Of a stretch of DNA of 64,000 nucleotides, positions 6,953 through 59,754 are shown piece after piece (within the stretch, counting starts at the first letter, position 1; each line of letters begins with the position of its first letter). This stretch comes from Bacilli bacterium (GTDB lineage: Bacteria; Bacillota_I; Bacilli_A; RFN20; CAG-826). The translations under genes and the position numbers were made by a program. The stretch lies in the NCBI GenBank assembly GCA_022641095.1, contig JALCDB010000006.1, forward strand, positions 3,423 through 67,422. Direction: 5' to 3'. Below the pieces are notes generated by a model, which was not told the DNA's origin, searched no databases, and saw only the letters and a program-made list of their open reading frames with translations.

Positions 6953-8932
6953 ATGGATAACCGCAAAAACAAATCCGCCTGTCTTATTCTCTCTTCAACC
7001 TTTTTGGCCTTGGCTCTAACGTTATCAGCCTGCGGCAACACGAATCCGCCAACGTCAAGCCCTGACGCAAACAGCGTGACAACAAGCTCAAAACAAACCG
7101 TTGCCCTGGCTGCGCCTGTTGTTTCTTTAAACGGAAAGAACGTTTGTTGGAACGCTGTCCCTGGCGCAACCTCTTATCTCGTCAACATCGACGGAAACGA
7201 AAGCGAAGTGACGGCCACTTCCTATTCTTTGGAGTCCCTGACCGATCCGAAGGATTATAGCGTTTCCGTCAAAGCCAAAGCGGGCGAGGTCGTTTCCTCG
7301 TCATCCAACGTGGTTACTTATGTTCTTACCGTCACCCTTGCCACCCCGGTCATCGCCATTTCTGGCAACCTCGTCAGTTGGGAGGCCGTCGACAAAGCCA
7401 CTTCTTACGAAGTCTTTGTGAACGAGGTTTCCGTTACGACCGTAAGCGAAACGCATTACGCGATCACGGATGAGGACGAGGGAGATTACGTCGTTGCCAT
7501 CAAAGCCCACTCAACGGACACCCATTATCTGACCTCAGATATAAGCAATAGCGTTAAGTACACCATCGCCCCTGCCCCAGAGCCGGTGAAACTGGCCACG
7601 CCAGTCGTCACTTTGGAAAACAAAGTCATTTCCTGGTCGGCGATCGCCAACGCCACAACCTATGAAGTTTATTTGAACGACGCCCTTAAGGACGAAACGT
7701 CGGAGTTGAACTACGATCTCAGTTTGCTGACCGCCGGCGTTTATTCGATTCAAGTCGATGCCTGCAACAAGGCCTCGAGCGATTACTCCACAAGCGACAA
7801 GAGCATCGCGGTCTCTTTAACGATCGAAGACCTCTCGTTCTCGAAACCGATTATCGCCTACTATCCAAGCAGCGACGACGGCAACATCCTTTTGAAAGAC
7901 ACCGATGAAGGCGTCATGCACGAATTCGTGCCGACCGCCACCGACGACTTGGCTTTGAACACTTGGTATTTCGAAGCCGTCGATGGACAGGCGAACACCT
8001 ATTTCATCAAACTTTATAATGGCTATTACCTTACCTATAGTTCCAGCGTCGCCGACGGGTCGGAAACGGTCGCTGACCCAAAACTGCCGAGCGATTCCTC
8101 AAGCATCATCAACCAGGAGTGGAAGATAACCACGAACGGGGATGGATACGATTTGCAGAATCTGGGCCATATCGCCCGTTGGGGGAATTATTACTTCGGC
8201 AAGGTCGATGGGAAGATGAAGTTTGGCTCGGGTCTGAAGGCGTGGCTATTGAACAACAACGCCAACGCCTATATGAATAAGACCAAACTGAGCGCCCCAA
8301 GCCTCACCGCTTCGGGCTATGTCGTGAGTTGGGCTGGCGTCAGCGGCGCCACCGCCTATGAAGTCTACGTCGACGGTGTCTTAGCGGACACGGTCAGCGA
8401 GACGGCCTACACCGTTACGAAGGACTGCAAAGTCCAAGTCAAAGCCATCTCAAGCGACGATGCTTATTTGGCCAGCTACCTCTCATCCAGCGTTGATTGC
8501 AGCGACCTTTTCGCCAAGAAAGTTTGGGCTTATTATAACGGTAGCCACAAGACTTTAGGCTATGTTGACGGCGATGATGGCAATATCTTCAAGATCGGTG
8601 CCGCCTACACCGACGTCAGCGATTACGCCCCTTACGAATGGACGGTTTCCCTCGTTCCTGGGACAAACTATTACACCATCGCCTTCGATAGCGGGTTGAA
8701 TCTCTCCTATTTCGACAATTCCGCCTCTGGGAACGTCCCCCAAACCAAAGCGGTCGTTGCCGACGCCACGGATTCCAAACAACAATGGAAACTCATCAGC
8801 GACGGCACGAATGCCTACAAACTCGAAAACGTGTATTTGTCCAATTACTATTCGAACGTCTACCTTGGCGAATACTACGGCGTTTACAAATTCAACGGCG
8901 TTTGCACGAGTTGGGTGTTCGCCAACGTATAA
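6953..8932 (+). CDS. surface lipoprotein with 4 Fn3-like repeats and 2 beta-trefoil (ricin-B-like) modules; putative glycan-binding protein
   Basis: AAGGAGG lies 6 nt upstream of ATG 6953. The lipobox is LTLSAC. Four repeats carry the SW-AV--A-sYeV motif. The QxW-type motifs QEWKI and QQWKL are present. Confidence 0.8.
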   Translation: MDNRKNKSACLILSSTFLALALTLSACGNTNPPTSSPDANSVTTSSKQTVALAAPVVSLNGKNVCWNAVPGATSYLVNIDGNESEVTATSYSLESLTDPKDYSVSVKAKAGEVVSSSSNVVTYVLTVTLATPVIAISGNLVSWEAVDKATSYEVFVNEVSVTTVSETHYAITDEDEGDYVVAIKAHSTDTHYLTSDISNSVKYTIAPAPEPVKLATPVVTLENKVISWSAIANATTYEVYLNDALKDETSELNYDLSLLTAGVYSIQVDACNKASSDYSTSDKSIAVSLTIEDLSFSKPIIAYYPSSDDGNILLKDTDEGVMHEFVPTATDDLALNTWYFEAVDGQANTYFIKLYNGYYLTYSSSVADGSETVADPKLPSDSSSIINQEWKITTNGDGYDLQNLGHIARWGNYYFGKVDGKMKFGSGLKAWLLNNNANAYMNKTKLSAPSLTASGYVVSWAGVSGATAYEVYVDGVLADTVSETAYTVTKDCKVQVKAISSDDAYLASYLSSSVDCSDLFAKKVWAYYNGSHKTLGYVDGDDGNIFKIGAAYTDVSDYAPYEWTVSLVPGTNYYTIAFDSGLNLSYFDNSASGNVPQTKAVVADATDSKQQWKLISDGTNAYKLENVYLSNYYSNVYLGEYYGVYKFNGVCTSWVFANV

Positions 8933-8955
8933 TCATCGAGGTTTTATCACTCATC

Positions 8956-11586
8956 ATGAAACGAAAGCAATTTTCACTCCTTGCCTTAGCCATGGCCACA
9001 TCGTTATTCGCTTGCAAAGCCCCCGATGGAAGTTCGTCCGTCCCCACGAGCGGCGAGGCTTCCTCTTCCGATGGGACCGCCAAGAAACTCGCCGCCCCGA
9101 CCGTAGTTTTGAAAGATTCGATCGTCAGTTGGAACGCCATTCCTAACGCCGATTATTATCACGTCTACATCAATTCCAACGAAAAAGGAGACGTCTTTGC
9201 CACGCGTTACTCCTTGGATTCCTTAACGGAAGCCGGAACTTACCTCATCCAGGTCAGCGCCGATAACAGCGCCCAGGATGGCGTTTGCTCCGATTTGTCC
9301 AATTTGCTTTCCTACACCGTGTCCGCCAAAGACAGCGCGGTCCCCTTAGCCGTGACATCTCTTGGCTCAAAAGCCGATTATACCTATGACGGCACTTGGA
9401 AGAAAGTTACGGACACCGTTTTGAATCGACAACTGCTGAAAGCCGATCTTTGGAGCGGGTTCGTCAATCAGTTCCGTTCCAACGTCGATGGGGATGGATA
9501 CGGTTGGCGCGGCGAATTTTGGGGCAAGATGATGATGGGCGCGACGGCGATGTACGAACAGAGCAAAGACCCCACGCTTTATCAGATTTTGCTGACGACT
9601 TGCAAGGATATTCTGACTACGCAGAGCCCCGATGGCAGAATCTCCAGCTATGGCCGGCTCAGCGAAGACGACTCCAGCGAGTTTTACGGTTGGGATATAT
9701 GGTGCCGGAAATATGTTTTGATGGGACTGGAAAGTTTTTACGACATTTGCCAAGACGAAAACGTGAAAGCCCAGCTTCTGACGGCCATGGAGAGGCACGT
9801 CGATTACATTCTCCGCTACATCGGCCCCGAAACGGGCAAAAAGAGCATCTTGGATTCCTCGTCGCAATGGGGCGGGCTGCCTTCTTGCAGCATCTTGGAA
9901 GGCATCGTCAAACTATATACGCTCAGCAAAGAAGAAAAATATTTGGACTTCGCGAGCTATATCGTCTCTACCGGTGGCTCGAAATTCGGCAACCTGGTTG
10001 CCCAAGCGATCGTCAATACGACGCTTCCTTATCAATGGGGAAGCCCAAAAGCCTATGAACTGACTTCTTTTTTCAACGGTTTGCTGTCCTACTCATTGAC
10101 TACCGGGGACGCGGACTGCCGAACCGCGGCTTTAAACTACGCCGAGGACTTGCTGGATAGCGAGATCACGTTGACTGGCGGCATGGGATGCGCGGGCGAA
10201 GAATTGAATTATTCGGTGATCGACCAAGCCAATCCGGATCGCACGGGAACGATGCTGGAAACCTGCGTCAGCGTCGAATTGCTCCGTTTCTTTTTGAACG
10301 TCTATCAAGCCACGGGCGATGTCCGTTATGTGGATTCGGCCGAACGGACCCTTTACAACGCTTTGATCGGAGCCGTCGACATGGACTGCAACTATGACCA
10401 CGCTTTCACGAGTTATTTCAACCTGGTTTTTGGCATAAAGACTCGCAGCGCGGCCGGCGGAATGCACATGGCGGAGCGCGATTATGGCTGCTGCATTTCC
10501 TTCGGCTCGGCCGGAACCGGGGCGATTCATCGTTACCAGATCGTCGAAAACGGGGCCGATCGCTACTTATTGAATTTTTATTTACCGGGAACGGTTTCCT
10601 TTGCTTTGGCCAGCGGGCAGAAGGTCAAGCTAACCACCGAAACCAATTACCCTTATTCGGGCCTTGTTTCCATGAAAGTTGGCTTGGAAGGACCCGCTGA
10701 ATTCCGTTTGGGTTTGCGCATTCCTTCCTGGTCAAAACAAACGACAATCGCGGTCAATGGCATGGCGCAAACCATCAGCCAATCGGGTTTTGATTACCTT
10801 TTGGAAAGAACCTGGCAAAACGGCGACCTCATAACGATGAAAATGGATATGAACCCCCGCCTTTATTGGGGATCGAGACTTTGCCTCAACAAGAACGCCC
10901 AATACAACGTCGCAATCAATTATGGGCCGTTGGTACTGGCTCGCGATCGTCGGTTGGACGAAGGCAATATCTTCCAAACCATTCATATGAAGACAATCGA
11001 CGGGGCTCCGGTTCTTACCGCGAGCAAAACGGCCGCTTTCTTCACCCAAGCGGAATTTTCCCTTAGCTTAGAAGACGGAACAAACGTGCATCTGATCGAT
11101 TACGCTTCCGCGGGCAAAACATATGACCTCAGTTCCCTTTACACCGTTTTCATGCCCACTACGGATTATTGGAATAAAATCTCTGACATGAGCAAGAAAC
11201 TCGTTCTCGTTTCGGAAGACAACTCCGCTCTAATTTCCTTATCGAGCGACGGCAGCCGGTTCCAGATGGGTGGTTTCTATTACGATCATGAGAACGAACT
11301 CGGCAAATGCGCTTTCAATATCACGGACCGAGGCGATTCTTACTATTCCTTGGATTGGTCCGCAAGCGGATTGTCCTTGACCGCCGACGGCGCCACCGCC
11401 GTTCCGAAAGCCTATGACGGCGGCGATGACCAGCTCTTCAAGATCGATCGTTTGAATCTCGTCTCCTATGCCTTTATCAGCAAGAGCGGAGGCGCTCTTC
11501 TCTCCGTGGATGGCGACGGGCTTAATCTCCATCTCTATTCCGATTGCTCGAGCCCAAAGCAGCGCTGGAAAATCATTAACGCCTAA
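8956..11586 (+). CDS. surface lipoprotein, GH127/GH146-like (DUF1680, beta-L-arabinofuranosidase fold) with an N-terminal Fn3-like and a C-terminal beta-trefoil-like module
   Basis: I use the ATG at 8956 (MKRKQFSLLALAMATSLFAC lipobox) rather than the track start at 8785. The GH127 hallmarks MLETC (Glu-x-Cys) and DYGCC (Cys-Cys) are present, and TLYNALIGAV resembles the family. The C-terminal motif is KQRWKI. Confidence 0.7.
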   Translation: MKRKQFSLLALAMATSLFACKAPDGSSSVPTSGEASSSDGTAKKLAAPTVVLKDSIVSWNAIPNADYYHVYINSNEKGDVFATRYSLDSLTEAGTYLIQVSADNSAQDGVCSDLSNLLSYTVSAKDSAVPLAVTSLGSKADYTYDGTWKKVTDTVLNRQLLKADLWSGFVNQFRSNVDGDGYGWRGEFWGKMMMGATAMYEQSKDPTLYQILLTTCKDILTTQSPDGRISSYGRLSEDDSSEFYGWDIWCRKYVLMGLESFYDICQDENVKAQLLTAMERHVDYILRYIGPETGKKSILDSSSQWGGLPSCSILEGIVKLYTLSKEEKYLDFASYIVSTGGSKFGNLVAQAIVNTTLPYQWGSPKAYELTSFFNGLLSYSLTTGDADCRTAALNYAEDLLDSEITLTGGMGCAGEELNYSVIDQANPDRTGTMLETCVSVELLRFFLNVYQATGDVRYVDSAERTLYNALIGAVDMDCNYDHAFTSYFNLVFGIKTRSAAGGMHMAERDYGCCISFGSAGTGAIHRYQIVENGADRYLLNFYLPGTVSFALASGQKVKLTTETNYPYSGLVSMKVGLEGPAEFRLGLRIPSWSKQTTIAVNGMAQTISQSGFDYLLERTWQNGDLITMKMDMNPRLYWGSRLCLNKNAQYNVAINYGPLVLARDRRLDEGNIFQTIHMKTIDGAPVLTASKTAAFFTQAEFSLSLEDGTNVHLIDYASAGKTYDLSSLYTVFMPTTDYWNKISDMSKKLVLVSEDNSALISLSSDGSRFQMGGFYYDHENELGKCAFNITDRGDSYYSLDWSASGLSLTADGATAVPKAYDGGDDQLFKIDRLNLVSYAFISKSGGALLSVDGDGLNLHLYSDCSSPKQRWKIINA

Positions 11587-45366: not shown

Positions 45367-45408
45367 ACCAAGGTTTAATTTTTTTTGCAAATGGCCGTTT
45401 TTTGTGTG

Positions 45409-47200: not shown

Positions 47201-47380
47201 GAATTCTTCTTGATTGTCACTCTAATTGCAAGTTTCAATGGCGAATACAACTGGAATAAAGCCGCTTATGACCTTCGTTATTTCTTTGTTCTCAAGAATC
47301 GGAAAGCAATTCACAAAGTATCCATTGATATCGCTATCTTGGGATCTGGAAACCCCAACGGCTCAACAATCTTGACGTGT

Positions 47381-47420
47381 GTAGCGAAACAAAAAACATA
47401 TTGAGCCTAGTTTGATTGAG
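47381..47420 (+). repeat. left copy of a 40-bp direct repeat (CTTGACGTGTgTAGCGaaACAAAAAACATATTGAGCCTAG)
   Basis: It matches 49508-49547 at 37 of 40 positions. Both copies encode the same short C-terminal peptide (LTC(V/I)A(K/R)QKTY*). Confidence 0.6.
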
Positions 47421-47472
47421 GGCAAGGACGAAACGACAAATGAAGTTGTATTGTGAATAGACGCCAAGCGTA

Positions 47473-48883
47473 TTACTTAACGAACCATTTCTTCGCTTTG
47501 GTTTTCCCCACTATTTCAATTGCCCCTTCGTTTTTCAGGCGTTTGATCATCCTCCTTACCGTCCTGTCGGTGACGCCTAGCGCTGCCGCTAGTTCAGCCT
47601 GGGTGATCGTTTCGCTAGCGCGGATCATGTCAATTATCTTTTTCTCGTTCGGGGATAAAAGCAACGTTTGTTTGTTGCCAGAACCACGATTCGCCAGATC
47701 GCTCTCCGCCTCTTTACGATAATTGGAATTGGCTATTCTTACGACGAAAAAGGATGATGTGCTTGAGAACGTGACATGATTCATGCCATCTTTGAAAAGG
47801 GCGTTGGTCTTGTTTGTGATGTTTTCAAGGCCGGATCCTCTTTCGTTCATGTATTTGAGTTTCCAAAAAAGGTCAGAGATAATCGGGTTCCTTCTCATCG
47901 ATTCCATGGCAAAATCTATTTTCTCTGGGATTTTCTCGCCGGAGAACATCCCCCCAGGCGAAGAAATTTCAATCCTGTCGTCATATATGTTCAGGCAAAC
48001 CTCGGCTCCATGGTTGTTGTAATCCCGGTGAATAATCCCATTCACCAAAGCCTCGGTGATGGCCTCTTCGTCGTAGTCCGGGTCATAGATGGTCTTGGTT
48101 CCTTCTTTGTGCCATCCGATTTTGGTATTGTTCCTCCAAAATAGCAAGGCATCGGAAAGCTGCTTCAAAAGACTGCCAGAGAACGTCTTGTCATCAGCCG
48201 CTTCTTTCTCACCCACTTTGTTAAGACCGTTCCACCTTGTGCAGAAAACACGACTGTGCCTATAAGGGTTCTCATCGGCCAAAAGGATTCCGGCGTTGGT
48301 GAGATGGCCTTCTTTGTCGGAAAGCCCAAACGAGCGGAAGTCTTGCTCGTTGAAGGTGGTTTTGGTCCGTTCTAGAAAGACGGAACGGAGGGTAGAGAAT
48401 GAGAACTCGCTTTTCTTGTATCCGGTGACTATTCCGTCATAGGTTTTCCCCTGCCCCCTGAGAATCAGTTCATTGAGAATGTGGGTTGGGGTCTCAATGG
48501 ACTCGCTGCCAGCCCGGATATAGGAAACGCAAACCCCATCGGCCTTGTAATAATAAGGCGTCGATTGCCCAGGCAAGACCTTGAGCTCTATCAATAATTT
48601 CCCTTTTTCTTTGAAAGGCTTGAGGAAATAAATTGGCGTCGGATCAATTCTTTGGTTTATAAGTTCAGAGATCTTCTCACCGCACCTTTGGGCGTCGGAA
48701 AGCCCGACCGGGCGTTTGTCGTTGCTTACCCCGAAGAAAAGCGATCCGCCGACCCCGTCGGCAAACGCCGAAACCGACTTCAGCCAGCTCTTCGGTTTTG
48801 CTTCTTCCAGTCTCTCTTTATAGTCGCAGTCGGTGCATTCTGAAATGAGTTCGCTGAGCGTTTTGAAATCCTCCCGAACCCAT
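47473..48883 (-). pseudogene. AlbA_2 (Schlafen-like) + HATPase_c_4 + C-terminal HTH protein with a disrupted start
   Basis: Track ORF 47473..48594 starts at an internal TTG. The same frame stays open to 48882 and encodes the missing AlbA_2 N-terminus (DCDYKERLEE...SVSAFADGVGGSLFFGVSND). That stretch has no start codon and is preceded by TAA. An ATG at 48883 is out of frame by 1 nt across ATGGGTT. The HATPase_c_4 motif IIHRDYNNHGAEVCLNIYDDRIEISSPGG is present, and the C-terminal HTH reads ITQAELAAALGVTDRTVRRMIKRL. Confidence 0.65.
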
Positions 48884-48900
48884 TATAGCCTCCATTAAAC

Positions 48901-48946
48901 ATTTAGGACATGATTTAGGACACATTCAGGACATGATTTAGGACGC
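48901..48946. repeat. four tandem 11-12-bp direct repeats, ATTTAGGACA(T/C)G
   Basis: The sequence is atttaggacatg / atttaggacac / attcaggacatg / atttaggacg, lying 18-65 nt upstream of the ATG at 48883 (minus-strand gene). Confidence 0.6.
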
Positions 48947-49507
48947 ATGCGCCAAAAACCGATTCAGGAACTGAGTTAAATTACCAATGGTTCAAAAAAG
49001 TTGCGTGAGAAGGGCGCAGGCGATGAGACGCCGACCTCTAGATTCGATGTCGTCAAAGCGAACCAAGAAAACACAAGGGCGAGAAGACTGAGCCTCCAGG
49101 AGGGTTGATTAACTCCTCCATCAACGAAATTCTTGTTATTGATAAGGAGCGCATCATCCACTTGGTCGTAAAAAACGAAACCTATATATAAACAAGAAGA
49201 TTGGAGGCAATGGGAAAGCCCTCTCTCATATGTTTGAAATCGGGCATGGCAAGTATCCTGTAAATACCTGTTCCAAGACATACAAAATCAACTATGAAAT
49301 AATTTGGTTTGAGCAAAGTTTATAAACGCACAAAAAGCAGGTCTAGGTATTGCTCAGGCCTGTTTTGGTGTTCAAAATGCGTTTTATGAACGGAAGCAAC
49401 ATGAGTTATTCCCGATTGGGAAAACAGGCAAACAACACCTAAACGCCGACAACACGCCTTCAACGGGGGGCAACGGATTGCTTCCTTAGCACTAAAGCAA
49501 CTACCGT

Positions 49508-49547
49508 CTTGACGTGTATAGCGCGACAAAAAACATATTGAGCCTAG
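49508..49547 (+). repeat. right copy of the 40-bp direct repeat
   Basis: See 47381-47420. Confidence 0.6.
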
Positions 49548-49665
49548 GCGAACTGATGGCATGGTGATATCTCCTTTAGACGAAAACGACGCCTGAAGCC
49601 GCAGCACCAATTATGGCTTTAGATAGCCTCAGGCGCCTTGCTTTGGATAACGCTTTCTTTATTCC

Positions 49666-50712
49666 TTATCCTTTCGAATATCTTGCGTTTTTGGTCGATC
49701 CGCTCTTAACCGCCTTCCCTTCCTTCACCATTTTGGCAAGCACCGCCTCGATTGTGGTAACGCTCACGTCGGGGAGAAGGGAGGCGATATCCATTTTACT
49801 GACGGGCAATAGCGAATTCAAAACGGCTTGTTCGACCCTTTCGGTCTTGCTGACTTTGTTATCGCGCAAAGTCAGGAACCGCCTATCAAGTTCTTGGTAG
49901 CAACGGAACAACGTGAATATGGTATTCCCCACGAACGGAATATAATCGTTTTTCCCTTCATGCCATCCTAATGAGGATTGTTTAAGGGCTTCGTAGTATT
50001 TTCCTTTGTCTTTGTTGATCTGCTCTTCGAAAGAAATGTATTTGGGCACATCGAACCCGGCTTTGTATAAGAGGAAAAGGGTAAGGAGTCTGCTCATCCT
50101 TCCGTTTCCGTCCTTAAAAGGATGAATGCAAAGGAAGTCAAGGATGAAAACAGGAATAAGAAGGAGCTGGTTGACGCCGGAATCGTCTCTGGCGTCGAGG
50201 AAGGCCCCAACGAACCGCTCCATCGTCTCAGGCGTCTCTTTCGCCGATGTCGGAACCCATCTAATAAGCGTTGTTCCGTCGCCCCGTCTCTCTCTTATGA
50301 GGTTATCCTCGCTCTTGTACTGCCCTCCATACGGCAAGGCAGTGCGCGCGAGCATCATCCTATGAAGTTCCTTGATGAGGGCCTCGCTCAAAGAAAGGGA
50401 CTCGTAATTCTCGTGAATGTAATTCAAGGCGTCGCGGTATCCGGCGATTTCCTCCTCGCTGTGGTTCCTAGGGGCGCTGCTTTCGTTGACGATGGCCCTA
50501 ATCCTCGAGTCGCTTGTAATGATCCCTTCGATGGCGTTGCTGCCTTTGACGGACTCCACGATGGCGGTTTTCCGTAGCCCCGTGAAAACGTCCGGGAACT
50601 TATCCTTGAGCGAATCGGATTTGGACTTTAGCCCATATATGAAGGAGATGGACGAAAGAAAACCGGATGGGACCAAAAGGGATTTGAGGAAAGAATAATC
50701 AAACATTCTCAT
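49666..50712 (-). CDS. Fic-family protein (class II, N-terminal inhibitory helix) with a C-terminal winged-helix
   Basis: The Fic motif is HPFKDGNGRMSRLL, matching HxFx(D/E)GNGRxxR. The inhibitory motif is SNAIEG, matching (S/T)xxxE(G/N). The C-terminal region ASLLPDVSVTTIEAVLAKMVKEG is wHTH-like. Confidence 0.9.
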   Translation of the reverse strand: MRMFDYSFLKSLLVPSGFLSSISFIYGLKSKSDSLKDKFPDVFTGLRKTAIVESVKGSNAIEGIITSDSRIRAIVNESSAPRNHSEEEIAGYRDALNYIHENYESLSLSEALIKELHRMMLARTALPYGGQYKSEDNLIRERRGDGTTLIRWVPTSAKETPETMERFVGAFLDARDDSGVNQLLLIPVFILDFLCIHPFKDGNGRMSRLLTLFLLYKAGFDVPKYISFEEQINKDKGKYYEALKQSSLGWHEGKNDYIPFVGNTIFTLFRCYQELDRRFLTLRDNKVSKTERVEQAVLNSLLPVSKMDIASLLPDVSVTTIEAVLAKMVKEGKAVKSGSTKNARYSKG

Positions 50713-50724
50713 ACAAATAAAACT

Positions 50725-50833
50725 TTCTGCATATATTTTATATTAGATAATGCAGATTAACAACAGTATATGCAAATATTTCTGCATATTCGATAATTTT
50801 TTTATGCATATTGTCACGAAGATATGCAAATCG
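50725..50833. repeat. two degenerate ~55-bp units, each with three (A/C/T)TGCA(T/A/G)AT boxes, in the Fic upstream region
   Basis: TTCTGCATAT, A(A/T)TGCA(G/T)AT and (T/G)ATATGCAAAT each occur twice, about 54-55 bp apart. Coordinates are within 1 nt. Confidence 0.5.
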
Positions 50834-51989
50834 AAGAAAGTGAAGGCGGATTTTTGCAAAATGTCGATTCCATTGATCATTTTAGGGACGTGTTTCGCAT
50901 AAGGGTACGCTTTTTTAAAGCCACCAGGAATTCATTGGAATCTGAAAACGCGTCCTTCCAGCAAAACCCCGCTTTTCGCTCTTATCGATCTTCTTATGCA
51001 ACGGCGAAACAACCATCCCAACATGTGCTTAGTGGGGTCAATGCGACTATGGCCACCACCTTCAGGCTGGGCTGCATGACATGTCGGCCACTGGGCGAGG
51101 CCATGTGACAACCTCTCGTTTTTCCAACGGAAATAACCTGTTTTGAAAATAACTGTCATTGACGAGGAAGGCATGGATGCTTTCCTAAGTATGTTGACGC
51201 TAAAAAGAGAACATATAGTACGGCACAAATCCGATTCCGCTCCTAATGGCTCGCCACTTGTGCCAGGTCAAGCAGAAACCCAAGCAAACTTAGATGATAA
51301 ATGCCGTCTTTGTCATAACCATTCGGTTCCGATGTATCCTCAACGATGATTTTCCTAAAGGCATCGCCTCATAGAAAACGGCTCTTTTCCCCTAGTTTGA
51401 CTTTCCTTGGGGAGATGTGGATTCGGAATAGCCTTAGCCAAGGCGATCTCGTCGATGAAAACATAATTCACGCCTCCACTGAAAACTTTATCCACATATG
51501 TAAGATTTTTTCATCAGCAATCTTACAGGTGGTCTTCTACGCGAAGAAAAGGGGCCATAAGCATAGGCCAAGGAACAAACAAATCCAACCATCGTTAAGG
51601 CGCCTAGAGTGCAGTTGTGGACACACGAGAATAGAGAACTAAAAAATAGTCTTTTCACATTCTTATCGGATTTTTGATACTGGCCAAAATCCCAAAGTGT
51701 AACATCGCCTTTTTGAGATAGTGTTAAGGGCAAAACGCAGTGATGGAACATATAAAACAGATTGATTGGCAAAAACAAACCAGTTTCCCCAAAATATGCA
51801 TTTAATCGGGGAAAATTAAGGACTTTGAAAATAATGCTCTTTACCTCTCAAAGGAAGTTAGAAAGCGCTTCAGGCATCAAAGAGATGACATTCAAAGAAG
51901 AACGGCCACATCTGCTCAAAACCAAAACGTCAAAAGAAAAATAAAACATCGAGCAAATAACCCGTATAATTGTGATTATCCAATATAGT

Positions 51990-52004
51990 GGGCAATCATT
52001 GCCC
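51990..52004 (+). promoter_or_regulatory. 7-1-7 palindrome GGGCAAT-c-ATTGCCC between a TATAAT box (51965-51970) and the RBS of the helicase gene
   Basis: Read directly. No good -35 was found. Confidence 0.3.
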
Positions 52005-52039
52005 CAATTCGCGTCATTTTTCAACATCGGAGTGATTAA

Positions 52040-55000
52040 ATGAGGAATTACATCAGCTCACAAGAAATTTTCATCTTTGGATATACAATTTCTCAAACGG
52101 CCGAGATCCATATTAATTCCACAGCAAACGAAGACATGTTTAAGGATGTCGAAGACCATCTTTTGAAATTGCGGATTTTGGCCGTTGGAAGTTATGTCAA
52201 CTATTACCCATTTGAACTTGAGTCAAACAGCCGGATCTTTAGTTCTTTATCCCGCTTTAAATTAAACGATTGGTATATTGCCGCTGGATTGTTCAGTCAA
52301 ACGGACGGTCATTGTTTCCGCGTCTTCCTTATTCACAAAACAGAGCGAGATTGGGCGGTTTCGTATGATTTGGCGGCGCGTTGCGTGGTTGCTATTACGA
52401 ATATCGGTTTTGGTTTAATCGACGAAAAAGGCGACGAATACCACGGAGATAATGTCTATGGTCTCTTAGGTTTCGATGAGCCGCCAGCCTTACCGAAGGC
52501 GCGCTTTCAACTAGACACAAAAGGTCACGCGCCCAACGAAACCGTTGTCCCGAAGACAACGCAAGAACAGGTTATTGAGAATCCGAGAATATCCAGTTCG
52601 GTCTACCTTTTTATGCAACGCGACGGAAGCGATGTTCGCTTAAACGACGGGAGTCCGATGTTCGTCGACGCAGCAAACCAATTGAATCGCCTTCAATACT
52701 TCGATCCCTATTCCTCTCGTATTCTTTATTTTCCCTTTTGTGCCGAAAACGATAAAAGGATCAACGACATCGAATATTTCGTGGCATCGAAATGGTTTAT
52801 TGTTGGGGCCCAACTCTCATCAACGGGTTCGATTTATTCCCTTTTGCTGGCCTATAAAGCCGACCCGTCATTTGCTTTTTTGGCCTCCCCTTGGCGACAG
52901 ACCTATTATTCGGTTATGAGCAATGGCTACAACGCCAAGGTCGATGGCAAAGTAATTCCGTATGATGAAATCGCCCAGCGCCTTCCTCTCAGCGTTCTTG
53001 AAACCGTTCCATCATTGGCTGATGTTGCCGAAATCAAGCGGAAGGAAAAAGAGAGCGAGCAAAAAACAATTGGCCCGTCAAAGGACCCTCTTCTCAAAAA
53101 CAATGCGGCGTTGACCGAAAACATAACGGTCGGGACGCCGGCTTCTCTAATTAATGAAGAATCCAAAACCGGAGAAACGATCAACGAATTGGCTCCAGCA
53201 ACGCATGATCTCGCAGTTGAGGAGCCAAGCGTTGTAACCCCAAGACCCGAAACGCCGATTACGCCAACCGAACAAACTAAAGCGCCTCTTGATGTTCCGA
53301 CTTTCCAAAAACAAGCGAATCCCGAGGCCAGGACCGCCGACAAGCCGGAGAGCAAAGTTGCCGAACCGGAGCTTTCCCCAGAAGAACAATTCGTCAAAGA
53401 GCAAGAGGCCACCACCTCTTTGTTGGCGAAGCGCCACGTTTACGCCACGCGGAAATACTTGAAAACAATCGACGATCTCAAAGACAAATACAAAAACGAA
53501 CTTCGGGATGCTTTGGGCAAAATCTATCAAACTCTATTGACCGACAATGACGAAGACCTCGAACAATATCTTCGCATCAAACGAAGCACGGAAATAAACG
53601 GCCTCGAAGACTTTAATATCTACAAATTTCGGGTCGCGAATTCAGGAACCTTCCAAGCCTGCCGTCTTTTCTACACGCGAGGATATGATTTGAAGCGGCA
53701 TATTGAGCCGAACGCCATCGTTCTTCTGTATTTCAGCGACACCGGCGAGCATGACCGCCAAGGCAAAACGGCCCGTCAAATCGAAGAAGACGAAAAAAAA
53801 GATGAAAGCATCATTGAAAACGACATCATTAATCTTCATGGTCGCGATCCGATTATTGAGAAAGAACTGTATCGGATTACCTTCCAGCAATCAACCGATG
53901 CCAGTAAACCGAAATTCAGCGAGTACGGCGTTTTGTCTTTAGACCAGGCCGGCCTTCTCGAAGCGACCAAAGCCCCTTGTGCTTTCGGGGGTAGCGCAGG
54001 AACCGGAAAGACGCTGATGAGCATCGACCTCTACCGAAGCCTCGAGGAAACCTACCCAGACCAGCGGATCCTCTATCTCACTTATCAATACGCCCTAAAA
54101 TGGAAAGTCGAACAGCAATTCCAAGAATTGGACATCCCGGCGGAATGTTTGACATATCAGGAGTTGGCCGAACAGATTCTCGATGATGGAAAAACGTATT
54201 TCGGCCAAGAGAAATTCACGAAGTGGGCCCGGTCGGTCTACGCCATGGCGAGAAACCAAAAGAACAATTTACTAAAAATTGCCCCAACGATCGACGAGGC
54301 AATATCGATCGCTTACGTCTTCTACCGTGGGATCATCGAGGGAAGAAGCCATCAGTTCAGCCGGAATGACGCATCTTTGCTGAGTTCTAGTGATTTTAAA
54401 GAAGAGATCAAATCTGAGATGGGATTCGATTCGACCCAAAAAGAAAAAATCTACGATATCGCAAAGGCTTATCGAGTTTACGTTGATCGTTTAAGTGGCC
54501 GAACGGACAACATGGCAGCCGAAGAGCTGTTAGCGAAAAAACCGGCTTGCTACGATGCCATCATCGTCGATGAGACTCAGGACCTGACCGAGCTTCAGGT
54601 CTTGTCAATCTGCGCCTTGCTGAAAGAAGGATCCAAAAAACTGTATCTCTTCGGGGACGACAACCAAGCCATCAACCCGACGATATTCACAATCGAAAGT
54701 GCGGCCAGTTGTCTGAAAATGGGTTTGGGGCCCGGGATCGACGTTCCAATCCAAAACTTGCGAGGCGCCTATCGCAGCTCAAATTTCTTGGTTAGTTATA
54801 TCAACGAAATTAACCGGATCAAACGAAAGGCCATCGGTGCGCAAGGCAATGGCAACGATGACGACGAGCAATCTTTGCGAAAAGACGAAAAGGGATCGCT
54901 TCCGCGTTTGATCACTAACGAAGAGCTTGAGGATGAACTTCTGTCATCCCCTTCCACCTTTCAAAGCGATACTATCGTCATCGTCGTTGACGATGAAGCG

Positions 55001-55828
55001 AAGAAGGCGCTTTGCGACCAATACCCCTCCATATTGAAGGACGACGTTGTCACGATCAACGATGCCAAAGGCCGCGAATGGGACAACGTCATCATCGATA
55101 ATTTCCTTTCTTCGTCCCGTGGGCTCTGGGACCAGATGCTTTCCGATGAAAGGATTGGCAGGAAGTCGACCTTGCATCGGATGCTGTTCAATCGTTATTA
55201 CGTCGCTTTAACGCGAGCCAAAGATCGAATCATCGTGTTGGAAGACAACGTCTCGCCTCTCATTCAATCAAAGCTATTGCATGGTCTAAGCCTCTTGGAG
55301 CAAAAAGAGGAGATACCTCAATACCTCAACGACACCTTCACCAGCGAAGATTGGTATTCCTATGCCAGAGGATCCCTTTTACGGAAGGATTTCGTCAATG
55401 CTCATCGTTGCCTGAACAAGATACCCAAGGAGAAACGAGATGGACGAATGGAGAAGCTTGTCAGGCAACTGGATCTTTATGATTTGTTCCTCGACAGCCC
55501 CGATAAATTTGCAAAAGAGGACATCCACGCTTTTTCGGATCTGGTGGACTGCATGATCGAAATTCAGGATCAAACACATCTAAAGCAACTCTATTCCGTC
55601 CGCAACGCCGATATGAAACTCCGTTTGCTCGCGCTGGACGAAAAGGCGGATCCGGATTATTTGCAGAACGTCGCCCAATTCATCGTACGCAATCCCGATA
55701 AATTTACGGACGGAGAACAAAATTATTTCGTTTCCTTGCTGTTGCGCTATCTTAAGAAGAATATCGAGTCTTCGCTTTCGAGAATGGAATCGTTAAAACA
55801 AACAGGAGGCATTTATGCCACAAGATGA
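52040..55828 (+). CDS. 1262-aa multidomain SF1 (UvrD/Rep-like) helicase with novel N-terminal domains
   Basis: The helicase motifs are Walker A GGSAGTGKT, Walker B/II IIVDETQDLTELQV, LRGAYRSSNFLV, INDAKGREWDNVII and YYVALTRAKDRIIVL. The N-terminal ~600 aa has no motif I recognise, except for an internal duplication and a RelE/ParE-like stretch. Confidence 0.8.
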   Translation: MRNYISSQEIFIFGYTISQTAEIHINSTANEDMFKDVEDHLLKLRILAVGSYVNYYPFELESNSRIFSSLSRFKLNDWYIAAGLFSQTDGHCFRVFLIHKTERDWAVSYDLAARCVVAITNIGFGLIDEKGDEYHGDNVYGLLGFDEPPALPKARFQLDTKGHAPNETVVPKTTQEQVIENPRISSSVYLFMQRDGSDVRLNDGSPMFVDAANQLNRLQYFDPYSSRILYFPFCAENDKRINDIEYFVASKWFIVGAQLSSTGSIYSLLLAYKADPSFAFLASPWRQTYYSVMSNGYNAKVDGKVIPYDEIAQRLPLSVLETVPSLADVAEIKRKEKESEQKTIGPSKDPLLKNNAALTENITVGTPASLINEESKTGETINELAPATHDLAVEEPSVVTPRPETPITPTEQTKAPLDVPTFQKQANPEARTADKPESKVAEPELSPEEQFVKEQEATTSLLAKRHVYATRKYLKTIDDLKDKYKNELRDALGKIYQTLLTDNDEDLEQYLRIKRSTEINGLEDFNIYKFRVANSGTFQACRLFYTRGYDLKRHIEPNAIVLLYFSDTGEHDRQGKTARQIEEDEKKDESIIENDIINLHGRDPIIEKELYRITFQQSTDASKPKFSEYGVLSLDQAGLLEATKAPCAFGGSAGTGKTLMSIDLYRSLEETYPDQRILYLTYQYALKWKVEQQFQELDIPAECLTYQELAEQILDDGKTYFGQEKFTKWARSVYAMARNQKNNLLKIAPTIDEAISIAYVFYRGIIEGRSHQFSRNDASLLSSSDFKEEIKSEMGFDSTQKEKIYDIAKAYRVYVDRLSGRTDNMAAEELLAKKPACYDAIIVDETQDLTELQVLSICALLKEGSKKLYLFGDDNQAINPTIFTIESAASCLKMGLGPGIDVPIQNLRGAYRSSNFLVSYINEINRIKRKAIGAQGNGNDDDEQSLRKDEKGSLPRLITNEELEDELLSSPSTFQSDTIVIVVDDEAKKALCDQYPSILKDDVVTINDAKGREWDNVIIDNFLSSSRGLWDQMLSDERIGRKSTLHRMLFNRYYVALTRAKDRIIVLEDNVSPLIQSKLLHGLSLLEQKEEIPQYLNDTFTSEDWYSYARGSLLRKDFVNAHRCLNKIPKEKRDGRMEKLVRQLDLYDLFLDSPDKFAKEDIHAFSDLVDCMIEIQDQTHLKQLYSVRNADMKLRLLALDEKADPDYLQNVAQFIVRNPDKFTDGEQNYFVSLLLRYLKKNIESSLSRMESLKQTGGIYATR

Positions 55829-56186
55829 CAAATTATACGAGTCGCTTCAGCAAGTCGCGGACATCGCGGCGACACTCGGCCGGATCGAGGCGATAGAACG
55901 GCAATTCAATGAACAGGTTAAGGGTATCGAAACCCGCGTGACCAGTTTGGAGACGAGCGTTGAAAAATATCAGAAGCAAGTTGATCGAATCGAATCGACG
56001 ATCAATGAATTAAATCTCTTCTTAAAAGGGAAATCCTCCTTGACCGACGAACTACAGAATCTACTGGGCGGATTAAAGGACCTCGATGTCAACAAATTGA
56101 CCGGGGAACTCAATGAGGTCGAAAAAAGCACCAAAGTGCTGAATAAGACTATCCAAGGCAAAAAAGACAAGCAGAAGCGTCATTAA
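55815..56186 (+). CDS. 123-aa coiled-coil protein, translationally coupled to the helicase gene
   Basis: An AGGAGG lies 5 nt upstream of the ATG, inside the end of the helicase gene (14-nt overlap). The sequence is heptad-rich (IEAIERQFNEQVKGIETRVTSLETSVEKYQKQVDRIESTINELN) with no TM segment. Confidence 0.6.
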   Translation: MPQDDKLYESLQQVADIAATLGRIEAIERQFNEQVKGIETRVTSLETSVEKYQKQVDRIESTINELNLFLKGKSSLTDELQNLLGGLKDLDVNKLTGELNEVEKSTKVLNKTIQGKKDKQKRH

Positions 56187-56336
56187 TTTGCCTAATTGCC
56201 CAAGTTCGCCCTTCCAACAGCGAGCGCTAAATCTTTTTGGCTTCCGGCATTCCCGTCTTTTCCCTGAAAGCCTGACGCTTGGCTTTGGCATGGGTTCTTC
56301 CTAGAAGGAAACGAAACCCTTCGACGGTTTTGCAAT

Positions 56337-56364
56337 GAAAAAAGGGCCGAAGTCATCCGGCCCT
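56337..56364 (-). terminator. rho-independent terminator of the minus-strand surface-protein operon
   Basis: On the minus strand the sequence is AGGGCCGG-atgactt-CGGCCCT followed by TTTTTT, 22 nt after the stop at 56386. Confidence 0.65.
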
Positions 56365-56385
56365 ATAATTCGACGTTGCTAGCGA

Positions 56386-59300
56386 TTAGGCTGCAACGAG
56401 ATTGCTTCCGTCGTATGAATAGCTCCCGATGGGGTTCCCGCTCGCATCCGCGATGGAGAAGGCGGATTCACTGCCTTCGATGCTATCTCCGGAAGTGAAG
56501 GAAACGACTGCGCCAAGATAGATGGTCCCATCTTTCATAACGGCGTATTTGCGGCTGCCATCACTCGTCTTGACAACAGATTGGATGATGACTCCGGAAA
56601 CGTTATCGGCTCCCGCCGTCTTCACCTGCTGACCCGAAATCGCGTCGCTGGAGTAATTTCCGCAGTCCTTGCTCATCAGGTAATTATCGCTACCCTTGGT
56701 AACCCAAGCATCGGTGCTATCGGTCGTGATGGTGATGCCTTCGCCCGTCAAGAGTGAGATGCCGTTGGCTTCGCTGGCGATTGTGAGGTTAGAGATGGCG
56801 GTTCCGCTCTCCCAAGTGTACCCATCCGCGACGAGGGACATCTTGTAGTAGGAACTGCCGTTTCGGCATCCCATGTATTCGCCTAGAAAGGCCTTGCCAG
56901 ACAAAGGAGCCGAATAAACGCTCTTGGTGACGGAAATGGCGTTCCCGGCATCATCCTTGAGCAATAGGTAATACGTCGCCCCTTCGACGAAGTCGTAATG
57001 GAAGGCGTCGCCGGAAGAGGTTTGAAGCGTTTTTCCATCTTGGTCCAGCAAGGAAATCGAAACCGTCTCGCCCTCGCCATAAGCGAAAGCCAAGGTGCTG
57101 GTTGCGCTTACTGTAGGAACGAAAGCGTAATAAGTGCCGTTAACGGTGGCTGAAAGATCGGCCATTCCGTCGGCGAAATCGTAGGCAAGCGCCGATTCGA
57201 GGATCTCGCCTGGGGCGGCGACCAAGCACTGCAAGGCGAAAGCGGAGGTCGAACTGTTGCTCGAATAGCCGACTTTGACCAAATAATCGCCGGCCGCAAG
57301 CTTGCTATCGAGCTCGAAGGAAGTGCCATAGGTATATGTTGGGTCGCCCCAGCCGCTTCCGTCTTCCTCACCAACTTCGGTCTTGTTCGCGATGGCTGTC
57401 GCGCCATCGGCGCTCAGAAGGTAAATCTGTTTGGCATAGGACGAGGAGCCACCGCCTAATAGGAAGCGATAGGCCCCTTCCGAGGCGACCGTGACTTTAT
57501 AGAAAGAATACTGCACGCCGAGATTGGATACCGTAATGGCATCGGCCCCAACCGCCAAGGTGAGCGGATTGCTTCCGACGCTACCCTGAGCCGGCTCGGC
57601 AAAGGAGAAATAGACTTTCTCCGTCTCTGATGAAGGCCCGTTGGAAGAAGCCAGGACAATATAGGTATGACCGGCCTCCAAAGACAGCAAACTGATGGCC
57701 TTGGAAACACCAGAGCAATGAGCGATCTCGCTTGAAAGATCAGCGGTATCGTAAAGTTCGAAGGAGAAGTACATATTGCCGATGCTCTCGCCCGTAAACG
57801 ATACTTGTTTGTCGGTAGCTGGCGTATAGGAATACATCAGATCCTGATAGTTGCTATTGCTATAGCGGCCATCGAAGACCACTTCCTGTTTGGCTCCGAA
57901 ATCGGTATAAGGAGCGGCTGTTGCGACGGAGTCGTTAGCGGAGGTCCAAATGGCGATATCCATGTCGCCGAAAGCCTTCTTCTCGGGCGAATAGCTGTTG
58001 ACGTAGGCGTTGAGCGAAACGTAATAGACTTGGCCTTGTTCCATGTTCAGACCGTAAATCCAAGGATCGGAGGAGGAATAAGTCTGAATCGGATCGTCTT
58101 TTTCGATCCCAAAACTGACCGGGGCAACCTCGGTTTTGGCGGCATCGTAGAATTTGGTTTGCAAATAGCTGATGGCCGTCGTATCGCTGATGTCCGCGTT
58201 GATGGTGACTTCATTGATGGCGAAATAATAGATATCAGCCGCCGGAGCGGTGAATTTGATGAAGAAATCCGGCATTCCCGTGACAGTTGTGACCGTTCCG
58301 CTATAGGAAGCGGCGCTGATGTCAAACGGCTTATCGAGCGAGCAGCCATTCGGGAAATCGGCGTACTGGGCATATAGATCCAAATCCGCCGTCAAAGCGG
58401 TCGCGAAATCGTAAAGCGTGCCGCCCGTGGCTTCGGTAAACCAACCCGTGCAGTATTTGTCGGCCAAAATCGGCTTTCCGATTTCGGCGGCTTGGTGCCC
58501 TTTGATCGCTGAGACGACATAGTCGCCACTCACGCTTTCCCCATCGATCGCCAATGAGCCGGCGCCGATATGGTAAGTGACCGTGACCATCTCGGTATCG
58601 GAGCAAAAGACGTTATCGATATCAAGGCCGTTCTGCTTATCGCCAATCAAAGTCGCCCAAGCGGATGAAGTTCCGCCGTATTCGATCTTTTTGACAACAC
58701 GGCTCACATCGATGATGCGGGCCTCAGGAAGGGAAACGACCCCTTGGCTCACCCTCACCAAATCGATATCGCGCGAATCGAAAGTGTCGTTGATGGCGGA
58801 GAGGGCTTTGGCATCGTAAGTGAGCGTAGCCAAAGCCGACATATCGTTAAGGGCCGAACTGTCGATCGCCGTCAAGTCGCGGGGGAACGTCAAAGCCGTT
58901 AATTTTGAGCAATGGCTGAAGCAATATTTGTTGAACTCCTGAATCGTGTCTGGAAGAACGACCTCCGATAGATAGGAGCAGTCTTCAAAGCCGCCATTGT
59001 AGGAAGTCGGGTCGCCAACGCAGACGACGGGCCCCAAATCGGTGGCGATGTCGCCTTCGATCGAAAGGTGGCGCTCAGGTACAACGGCCTTGGAAATGCC
59101 GCCATCCGACTTAACGACGTGCCAAGTCCCGGCGGTTTTCTCCGCATCGGTCTGAGCGAAATCGACCCCTTCGCTCCCTTCGCCGACGATACCATAGACG
59201 TTGGCTGCCTGATTGGCCGAAAGAGCGTCGCCGTCAATCGGCGTCGCCGTCAAAGAGACATCCACCCTGTCGAACCAGTCGGTTTGAGGGATGTTCCGGA

Positions 59301-59754
59301 GCGTATAGACCATGAAATATTGGTAGGAATCATGAAGATCCGATAGCCAATGAATCGTGTCAGCGTCCTTGACGGAGGTATAGACGGTCGTCACGGCAAA
59401 GGCCTTCTCGTCTTTGATGACCGTGCCGTCTTTGGAAGTCACCGTGCGGGCGAAAGAGGCGGATTCAAGGCCTTCATAGCCATCGAGAGCCGCCACGAAA
59501 CGGAGGCTCTTTTTACCATCCTGCCCCGCTAACGCCTGAACGCCCATCACGGGAGACAAAGCGTCGTTTTCGTTGGCCAATAGCCGATGCGAGCCAAAGG
59601 GCAGCCCGGTTCCGATATCGTCGGAAACGACTTCATCGGTCAAATCACCCGCGATCGGCGCGGTTGCGGAAACGATCGCATTGACGCCGATGGCGCTCAA
59701 GGCCAGGGCGCATAAAGCGCCGGCGATGGATAACTTTTTGGTTTTGCTTAACAT
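56386..59754 (-). CDS. 1122-aa secreted surface protein: BspA-type LRR, Listeria-Bacteroides repeat, then several pre-peptidase-C-terminal-like beta-sandwich repeats
   Basis: The signal peptide is MLSKTKKLSIAGALCALALSAIG. The LRR_5-like segment is FEDCSYLSEVVLPDTIQEFNKYCFSHCSKLTALTFPRDLTAIDSSAL. The Flg_new-like segment is YCTGWFTEATGGTLYDFATALTADLDLYAQY. Confidence 0.75.
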   Translation of the reverse strand: MLSKTKKLSIAGALCALALSAIGVNAIVSATAPIAGDLTDEVVSDDIGTGLPFGSHRLLANENDALSPVMGVQALAGQDGKKSLRFVAALDGYEGLESASFARTVTSKDGTVIKDEKAFAVTTVYTSVKDADTIHWLSDLHDSYQYFMVYTLRNIPQTDWFDRVDVSLTATPIDGDALSANQAANVYGIVGEGSEGVDFAQTDAEKTAGTWHVVKSDGGISKAVVPERHLSIEGDIATDLGPVVCVGDPTSYNGGFEDCSYLSEVVLPDTIQEFNKYCFSHCSKLTALTFPRDLTAIDSSALNDMSALATLTYDAKALSAINDTFDSRDIDLVRVSQGVVSLPEARIIDVSRVVKKIEYGGTSSAWATLIGDKQNGLDIDNVFCSDTEMVTVTYHIGAGSLAIDGESVSGDYVVSAIKGHQAAEIGKPILADKYCTGWFTEATGGTLYDFATALTADLDLYAQYADFPNGCSLDKPFDISAASYSGTVTTVTGMPDFFIKFTAPAADIYYFAINEVTINADISDTTAISYLQTKFYDAAKTEVAPVSFGIEKDDPIQTYSSSDPWIYGLNMEQGQVYYVSLNAYVNSYSPEKKAFGDMDIAIWTSANDSVATAAPYTDFGAKQEVVFDGRYSNSNYQDLMYSYTPATDKQVSFTGESIGNMYFSFELYDTADLSSEIAHCSGVSKAISLLSLEAGHTYIVLASSNGPSSETEKVYFSFAEPAQGSVGSNPLTLAVGADAITVSNLGVQYSFYKVTVASEGAYRFLLGGGSSSYAKQIYLLSADGATAIANKTEVGEEDGSGWGDPTYTYGTSFELDSKLAAGDYLVKVGYSSNSSTSAFALQCLVAAPGEILESALAYDFADGMADLSATVNGTYYAFVPTVSATSTLAFAYGEGETVSISLLDQDGKTLQTSSGDAFHYDFVEGATYYLLLKDDAGNAISVTKSVYSAPLSGKAFLGEYMGCRNGSSYYKMSLVADGYTWESGTAISNLTIASEANGISLLTGEGITITTDSTDAWVTKGSDNYLMSKDCGNYSSDAISGQQVKTAGADNVSGVIIQSVVKTSDGSRKYAVMKDGTIYLGAVVSFTSGDSIEGSESAFSIADASGNPIGSYSYDGSNLVAA

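Follow-up and report, generated by a model that had tools for sequence, protein, structure and literature searches.

The helicase-based systems Nhi, Hna, Hhe and AbiO share a design in which a superfamily 1 (SF1) motor and a putative nucleic-acid-cutting domain lie in one chain. In Schlafen group III proteins (SLFN11/13-type) the layout is analogous, with an RNase-type domain at the N-terminus and an SF1 helicase at the C-terminus; the SF1 helicase HelD (helicase IV) also has a long extension at its N-terminus. On single-stranded DNA, SF1A enzymes travel 3'-5'. A RelE fold may act as the effector of a larger sensor protein in Cami1, which we take to be a CARF-RelE fusion, and in higBA the toxin gene precedes the gene of its partner. 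Here we describe a gene pair at positions 52,040 to 56,186 of a 64,000-nucleotide stretch of contig JALCDB010000006.1 from a Bacilli bacterium (GCA_022641095.1), the whole of which we call the window. The pair encodes a giant helicase and a small coiled-coil protein, with the helicase gene, like the toxin gene of higBA, placed first.

Both genes are real, and they are members of a previously undescribed, sparsely but widely scattered family. It is a new multidomain SF1A helicase family, which joins the motor to a module of likely RelE/HigB fold with invariant polar residues, a coiled-coil partner and a family-specific repeat. The locus is best explained as a two-gene module of this family that is self-contained and moves horizontally. 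Our leading reading, to which we give a probability of roughly 0.45, is that the pair is a conflict (anti-phage or anti-mobile-element) module, whose motor tracks nucleic acid and whose RelE-fold effector is under the control of the partner.

An SF1A motor joined to a predicted RelE/HigB-type fold

A sequence-only reading of the locus had proposed a complete UvrD/Rep-type motor in the C-terminal half of the helicase protein, and each motif that it quoted was found. Along the chain lie GGSAGTGKT (residues 650-658), IIVDETQD (841-848, with DETQD at 844-848), GDDNQ (872-876), YRSS (911-914), KGREWDNVII (1010-1019, with KGREWD at 1010-1015) and YVALTRAKDRI (1054-1064, with VALTRAKDR at 1055-1063). 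Walker A, DExQD and motifs III, IV, V and VI are all present and in order, and they are invariant or nearly so in family alignments of 20-34 sequences. Over residues 640-878 two Pfam families exceed their cut-offs (AAA_19, 33.1 bits against 25.1; UvrD-helicase, 30.9 bits against 23). Against PDB, the family profile matched PcrA (6e-17) and GajB (7e-16), then UvrD, Rep and FBH1, with PcrA, UvrD and Rep ranging from 1e-12 to 6e-17, and it also reached HelD (2e-6) and RecB (6e-6). Judged by these motifs and profiles, the motor is a divergent SF1A helicase with all motifs intact. Residues 1-640 and 1085-1262 had no sequence match in Pfam, NCBIfam or PDB, and NCBIfam matches of the whole protein were all far below threshold. 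The C-terminal tail, with a faint match to TPR_COPA_B (E=0.15), is possibly helical and TPR-like; Pfam TPR families also occur, at some place in the chain, in a distant helicase match (P0041).

The segment ahead of the motor was predicted by AlphaFold to be a compact module (predicted local distance difference test, pLDDT, ~90) with the secondary-structure order E-H-H-H-E-E-E-H (E, strand; H, helix), which agrees with the topology of the RelE/ParE fold. An earlier model of residues 455-640, built on a 3-sequence alignment, had a pLDDT of 40 and was discarded. In Foldseek the top PDB match was Cami1 (8phj_X, probability 0.93); HigB of S. pneumoniae (6af4_G) matched with probability 0.90 and a TM-score to target of 0.51, and HigB2 of V. 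cholerae (5ja9_D) with 0.54 and 0.56. Among the top 20 PDB matches, those with probability above 0.5 were chains of Cami1 and of the HigB/HigB2 toxins. We consider it likely, on this model, that the module has a RelE/HigB-type fold.

Aligned by hhalign with E. coli RelE (the query being identical to PDB 4v7k), the module placed YKFRV..CRLFY on RelE YKIKL..YRLVY (E=0.03). The register was the expected one, with YKIKLRSSGYRLVY placed on YKFRVANSGTFQACRLFY, so that K529 falls on RelE K52 and R542 on RelE R61. Four residues (K529, R542, H571 and Q574) are invariant family-wide, including members that are only ~20% identical, and R465 is invariant among members with the full architecture. This pattern of conservation is compatible with a catalytic site at the four residues, and catalytic competence of the module is possible.

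In relatives of ~800-870 aa the module is the N-terminal domain, which points to module, motor and tail as the ancestral unit and to the N-domain array as a later acquisition; by this comparison of architectures the duplicated N-domains are a lineage-specific addition. The resemblance to RelE-type toxins that had been seen in the letters therefore survives in part: it holds at the level of the fold (Cami1, HigB and HigB2) and not in sequence profiles, which find no RelE. The word insert, which had been used for this segment, is wrong, as the module is the ancestral N-terminal domain of a broad ~800-aa helicase family.

A family-specific repeat and a disordered linker

A tandem duplication of a ~150-aa domain had also been noticed at the N-terminus; we put the length of this domain at ~135 aa. 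The two copies are weakly similar when compared pairwise (BLASTP, E=0.034); the duplication was confirmed with a hidden Markov model (HMM) made from copy-1 units alone, which finds copy 2 of the window protein at E=2.3e-15. Counted with iterated profiles, family members have 1-5 N-domains. A profile of residues 1-345 found nothing in PDB, and the N-domain has no sequence match in Pfam or PDB. For copy 2, AlphaFold on a 34-sequence alignment gave residues 10-140 a pLDDT of 85-95 and placed a six-strand beta meander after an alpha/beta part; for this domain Foldseek returned at best weak, WD40-blade-like fragments (probability <0.45). On these searches, the N-domain is a new protein domain that is restricted to this helicase family; its suggested role as a sensor is purely conjectural. 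In one locus (L089) the family gene is split: N-domain copy 1 forms a separate 171-aa open reading frame (ORF; P0006, 1181-1696), and 21 nt past it an ORF at 1718-4114 matches residues 166-1038 of the window protein with 53% identity.

The disorder proposed for the linker that follows copy 2 was borne out by its composition (P, E, T, K, S, A and Q make up 68% of residues ~322-459) and by the AlphaFold model, where most of it has pLDDT <50. Its length and sequence vary among relatives, without conservation. In the clade of gut Bacilli described below, the linkers between N-domains are long and rich in Lys, Pro and Glu, and they carry 2-4 copies of one short motif, (R/K)P-x-F-(V/E)-x-x-(S/G)-x-KKP-(K/R)-N-L-G, which resembles a repeated docking peptide (P0010, P0012, P0014, P0019, P0020, P0023 and the protein encoded at 6593-7981 of L098). 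The window protein has a degenerate trace of this motif at best.

A conserved coiled-coil partner

The two ORFs, their overlap of 14 nt (55815-55828) and the small ORF's own AGGAGG are all present in the sequence as they had been read (Table 1), and the overlap suggests translational coupling. Between the window and its relative L002, the ratio of non-synonymous to synonymous substitution (dN/dS) of the partner is 0.08, against 1.9 and 2.3 in the other two frames, so the small ORF is a real gene under purifying selection. Conservation together with the helicase, on which the idea of a two-gene system hangs, was found well beyond the window: in most of 73 related loci a coiled-coil ORF of 108-285 aa, homologous or analogous, stands directly 3' of the helicase gene, at a distance of -20 to +18 nt and often overlapping, the most distant loci included. 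Queried with phmmer, the window partner reaches partners of helicases that are only ~30% identical, and the partners align colinearly, sharing hydrophobic columns of heptad type and a basic tail (in the window, 8 K/R in the last 20 residues). Partners matched no Pfam or PADLOC family, giving generic or weak coiled-coil cross-matches only, and those of five relatives had no PADLOC match at E<=1e-5. In one locus (L004, 3841-9297) the partner gene (8914..9297) is kept and lies ~5 kb from the helicase gene, with an HTH-ABC ATPase (HTH, helix-turn-helix), an FtsX permease and other genes inserted.

The helicase gene probably begins upstream of its public annotation. The deposited call P0001 (1147 aa) takes the GTG of codon 116 as its start and thereby halves N-domain copy 1 (codons 1-116 span 52040-52387). 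The ATG at 52040 is the better start because the relatives P0002 (80% identity) and P0004 keep the first 115 residues; the annotated start of P0001 is, from this comparison, probably wrong. The ~120 nt that precede the ATG are 70% identical to the upstream region of the relative L001. A GC-rich hairpin downstream of the pair resembles a terminator on the minus strand and may act in both directions.

Table 1 Features of the helicase-partner locus and of its neighbours in the window.
Feature	Position	Strand	Description and basis
Helicase gene	52040..55828	+	1262 aa, ATG; ORF list and translation
Ribosome-binding site of helicase gene, GGAG	52029..52032	+	7 nt before ATG; read from sequence
N-domain copy 1	52040..52489	+	aa ~1-150; profile matches over aa 10-145
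N-domain copy 2	52595..52999	+	aa ~186-320; same domain type, copy-1-only HMM E=2.3e-15
Disordered Glu/Thr/Pro/Ala/Lys-rich linker	53003..53416	+	aa ~322-459; composition and model
RelE/HigB-fold module (predicted)	53426..53818	+	aa ~463-593; predicted structure, Foldseek, invariant residues
SF1A (UvrD/PcrA/Rep-like) helicase core	53957..55279	+	aa ~640-1080; Pfam and PDB profiles
Walker A	53987-54013	+	GGSAGTGKT
C-terminal tail, possibly helical	55280..55825	+	aa ~1081-1262; conserved W/Y/A pattern in family consensus
Ribosome-binding site of partner gene, AGGAGG	55804..55809	+	5 nt before ATG; within helicase gene
Partner gene	55815..56186	+	123 aa, ATG; coiled-coil, basic C-terminal tail
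GC-rich hairpin between convergent partner and leucine-rich-repeat protein genes	56343..56364	-	Consensus scan only
Fic gene, SoFic-like	49666..50712	-	PADLOC SoFic model, 117 bits
HATPase_c_4 and HTH gene (earlier called Schlafen-like)	47473..48594	-	Pfam; no AlbA_2 detected

Size and spread of the family

An exhaustive HMMER search of 1.84 billion representatives with residues 1-640 yielded 21 clusters, comprising 19 giant helicases (940-1776 aa) and two small ORFs with the N-domain only. Scanning GTDB with one genome per species, we found 139 relatives among 185,579 species genomes. At 31-35% identity, members with the full architecture come from metagenome-assembled genomes of uncultured 'Bacilli' of gut and rumen, Erysipelotrichaceae and Candidatus Enteromonas. 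Shorter relatives (790-1120 aa) come from Christensenellaceae, Treponema bryantii, Cetobacterium, Cellulosilyticum and Holtiella as well as from Paenibacillus, Saccharibacillus, Rossellomorea, Elusimicrobia and Lentisphaeria. One cluster at 90% identity holds 383 member sequences. Because uncultured Bacilli of gut and rumen commonly carry the family, what it does matters for understanding a little-known section of the gut microbiota. NCBI names the relatives only 'AAA family ATPase' or 'hypothetical protein'. Word-index searches with the whole protein and with the full-length family alignment gave three near-identical proteins only, the window's own among them, probably because the candidates were crowded out by matches to low-complexity linkers; an alignment from which the linkers had been removed was successful. 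Among PLSDB plasmids there was no family member and only generic UvrD matches, and our literature search found no paper describing a fusion of a RelE fold with a helicase.

Genomic surroundings and mobility

The pair moves horizontally as a unit. The flanks of its close relatives L001 and L002 are unrelated. Among the 94 immediate neighbours from 38 non-syntenic loci, 106 Pfam families are represented, and this heterogeneity argues for a self-contained mobile pair. In the window, GC content is 0.41-0.47 from 42 to 56 kb, compared with 0.48-0.58 in most of the remainder. This ~14-kb stretch holds a STAND-like ATPase, a MerR gene, an ABC exporter, the HATPase_c_4/HTH gene, the Fic gene and the helicase pair; outside it, the window is chromosomal and dominated by glycoside-hydrolase genes. 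The low-GC stretch (42000-56000) showed no integrase, no tRNA and no att-like repeats at its flanks, and scans of the whole window for Rfam families and tRNAs were negative.

Defence-type genes accompany the family in the window, in L087/L088 and in some second-tier loci. A relative with 54% identity (P0032) adjoins an HTH gene, a Dam methylase, DUF6339, an integrase and a type I restriction-modification system, and another (P0007) is placed between AddAB and a Fic gene. Further examples among the 94 neighbours, where they form a minority, are GmrSD_N, Dam/Dcm methylases, SLFN-type helicases and the PADLOC candidate-system proteins PDC-M16A and PDC-M33C. Such examples are suggestive of an enrichment of defence genes near the family.

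Of the two neighbours that had been named beside the pair, the Fic gene stands, as a SoFic-like match in PADLOC (its protein scored 40 against the NCBIfam SoFic model, with a cut-off of 550); the supposed Schlafen-like gene is an HATPase_c_4 and HTH gene. Three further, unrelated loci also have a Fic gene no more than 10 kb from a family helicase (L029 405-1466, L039 17427-18464 and L005 12424-13473). A 58-nt direct repeat (47370-47427 and 49507-49564, 83% identical) flanks the HATPase_c_4/HTH gene and the ORF-poor stretch after it, and may be the footprint of a small inserted cassette. The 1.3-kb gap between the Fic and helicase genes (50713-52039) has no convincing ORF, no Rfam match and no remnant of the genes that flank relatives; only its last ~120 nt resemble the upstream region of L001.

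A proposed conflict function and its alternatives

We infer the defence role, the nuclease activity, the substrate and the roles of the N-domain and partner, along the following lines. The motor would load on foreign or aberrant nucleic acid and track along it. The RelE-fold domain would be an effector that cuts or grips nucleic acid, its invariant Lys, Arg, His and Gln sitting where RelE-type RNases carry catalytic residues. The N-domain array may be the part for recognition or tethering, and the coiled-coil partner may regulate or scaffold the enzyme. A more specific form of this proposal would make the pair an unrecognised class of two-gene immune or genome-surveillance systems, in which the motor delivers an active RelE-fold endonuclease to the nucleic acid along which it tracks, the partner is an antitoxin-like brake and, in some lineages, an expandable N-domain array, set on disordered linkers studded with short linear motifs, serves as sensor or tether. 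On that form of the proposal, no nuclease of RelE fold would before have been coupled to a helicase instead of to the ribosome; this we advance tentatively and consider rather unlikely. An undescribed defence system with a toxin effector, as first suggested for the locus, is a good hypothesis and not a result. What had been said of the architecture is real, and the small ORF is a conserved partner; what had to be given up is a RelE resemblance beyond the fold and the notion of an insert.

A number of observations weigh against a conflict function, beginning with the module itself. No RelE/ParE family was found by Pfam (with the window segment or with 37 or 31 members singly) or by comparing the module profile with PDB, where a profile of residues 455-640 found nothing either. 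The Foldseek E-values of the module were 0.05-0.5 and none was <=0.001, which we attribute to the query being a 472-aa two-domain model. The module could also be a non-catalytic binder, as in ParE-like proteins. The RelE likeness might even be coincidental, with the module an accessory N-terminal domain without toxin ancestry and the pair without any special system-level function. Such a coincidence would fit these Foldseek E-values, the failure of HMM profiles of 31 diverse modules to find a RelE/ParE family in Pfam or PDB, and the mere 23 columns over which hhalign aligned the module with RelE. It is hard to square with a Foldseek top 20 in which the matches above 0.5 are Cami1 and HigB/HigB2 chains, with the agreement in topology, with the placement of the invariant K529 and R542 on RelE K52 and R61, and with the conservation of the partner, which argues for a functional unit. 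We regard it as improbable.

Further points of this kind come from the surroundings and the distribution of the family. Defence genes are present but not dominant among the neighbours, and scans of a phage database and of IMG/VR found no family member. In L005, AddB and AddA stand directly upstream of the helicase gene. A gene for a Vsr-NUDIX fusion (315 aa; Vsr 73.7 bits, NUDIX 59.8 bits) lies directly 3' of the partner gene in 22 related loci from Bacilli of gut and rumen, and in L007 (14285-15232) it overlaps the partner gene by 4 nt. In this clade the pair is apparently co-transcribed with the Vsr-NUDIX gene. The gene is part of a block conserved in 19-22 gut Bacilli species, consisting of a Sel1-like gene, two ABC exporters, GNAT, helicase, partner and Vsr-NUDIX. 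Conserved synteny with housekeeping genes, at deep divergence, points to vertical inheritance and a resident function, possibly in DNA repair. Whether homologs are core genes outside variable regions thus has two answers: the nearest relatives of the window pair occupy variable contexts, and synteny is conserved in ~20 Bacilli species. Lastly, Bacillales partners (Paenibacillus, Saccharibacillus and Rossellomorea; L058 2769-3395, L071 11443-12051 and L073 11407-12087) end in PID(V/I)(S/N)D(D/E)DLPF, a type of ending found in 4 of the 7440 ORFs in all fetched loci. The C-terminal tail of the single-stranded DNA-binding protein SSB is DDDIPF in E. coli and DDDLPF in B. subtilis, and the ...DDDLPF ending of these partners closely copies this protein-recruitment motif, which points to replication or repair.

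Some of these findings make up the case for the explanation that the family is a lineage-specific genome-maintenance helicase, acting in repair, replication restart or recombination control, and that the window copy is a horizontally acquired paralogue. The motor would act together either with the SSB interactome or with a nicking endonuclease of the Vsr type and a NUDIX hydrolase, the partner would be an adaptor that links it to proteins of replication or repair, and the module would bind nucleic acid or protein. Synteny with Vsr-NUDIX across 19-22 species and the 4-nt overlap in L007 favour it, as do the AddB and AddA genes of L005, the SSB-tail-like endings in three Bacillales genera and the closest solved motors (PcrA, UvrD and Rep). 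For a maintenance enzyme, however, the family is rare, at 139 of 185,579 species genomes, and absent from most relatives of its hosts. It also evolves about twice as fast as the flanking housekeeping genes: between species of the clade, the helicase is 32% identical, and identity is higher in PlsX and the ABC exporters (57-62%) and in Vsr-NUDIX (55%). The same slot of a metagenome contig (L098) holds only a 462-aa protein of N-domain, linker and N-domain (6593-7981), followed by Vsr-NUDIX; module, motor, tail and partner gene are all gone, and the ABC, ABC, GNAT, Vsr-NUDIX synteny is otherwise intact, so motor and partner are not indispensable there. (This contig and L099 came from a metagenome scan with the Vsr-NUDIX protein, which returned mostly unfused Vsr or NUDIX genes.) The rapid evolution and the loss in L098 temper the objection from conserved synteny. 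The window copy, moreover, has no Vsr-NUDIX neighbour and lies in a low-GC island, and its close relatives stand in unrelated contexts with defence-type genes. We consider genome maintenance a possible but doubtful explanation; it does not fully exclude a defence role, since watching for aberrant DNA is of use in repair as well as in immunity.

The mobility of the pair between contexts would also suit a toxin-antitoxin-like addiction module, in which a helicase-tethered RelE-fold toxin is neutralised by a labile coiled-coil protein, in HigB-then-HigA order, and the carrier island is stabilised. The best fold matches include the HigB and HigB2 toxins, and the partner gene lies downstream, overlapping or abutting the helicase gene, as this explanation would have it. 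But the partner has no HTH or ribbon-helix-helix DNA-binding domain and no Pfam antitoxin match, and a toxin has no need of ~1260 aa with an intact ATP motor and invariant motor motifs. The partner is displaced by 5 kb in L004, motor and partner were lost together in L098, and the plasmids searched held no family member. An addiction module is, to our mind, quite unlikely. A search of the fetched loci with RelE/ParE seed sequences found no such toxins.

If the pair is a conflict module as we propose, it would bring a new combination of effector and motor (RelE fold, SF1A helicase and coiled-coil regulator) to the helicase-based conflict systems, and it would put a RelE-type fold to work outside the ribosome. 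Through their SSB-tail-like ending, the Bacillales partners offer a direct experimental route to the proteins with which the system interacts.

Comparison with known systems

That the locus corresponds to no described helicase-based defence system, as the sequence-only reading held, agrees with PADLOC 2.0, which gave partial, weak matches to the motor only (GajB, AbiO, Nhi and DRT-helicase). Likewise, a match of the N-terminal parts to a known helicase family such as HelD was not seen in Pfam or PDB profiles. For HelD (helicase IV), NCBIfam PRK11054 scored 21.6 bits against a cut-off of 543, and the PDB HelD match (2e-6) covers the motor only, scores that exclude this identity.

The best PADLOC matches of the window protein were to Gabija GajB, partial and weak at 47 bits at most. 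A Gabija assignment was rejected, as the PADLOC scan of eight neighbouring genes (spanning 43042-59754) found no GajA/OLD nuclease. Relative to GajB, UvrD, PcrA and Rep, the window helicase adds ~640 aa at the N-terminus, 180 aa at the C-terminus and a dedicated coiled-coil partner.

With the RelE/HigB toxins and Cami1 the module shares its predicted fold and the basic residues on strands 2 and 3, which lie in the register of RelE K52 and R61. It differs from them in having no profile membership, in being fused to a DNA-type helicase and in a partner without an antitoxin-type DNA-binding domain; its conserved C-terminal residues are (E)H..Q, compared with R..Y of the RelE type. Entry of the module into the ribosomal A site is doubtful because of its size and fusion partner. 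A type II toxin-antitoxin system in the strict sense was rejected on the missing RelE/ParE profile match.

Schlafen group III resembles the family in design and not in descent: the Pfam SLFN-g3_helicase match is marginal and confined to 45 residues in the Walker A region (24.1 bits, cut-off 24), the N-terminal fold is unrelated, and there is no AlbA_2/Slfn core. The PADLOC models of Nhi and AbiO match only residues 834-940, the Walker B region within the motor, and both assignments were rejected. Set beside Nhi, Hna, Hhe and AbiO, the family stands apart through an effector fold that is RelE-like and not PD-(D/E)xK or Vsr, through its second gene and through the novel N-domain repeats.

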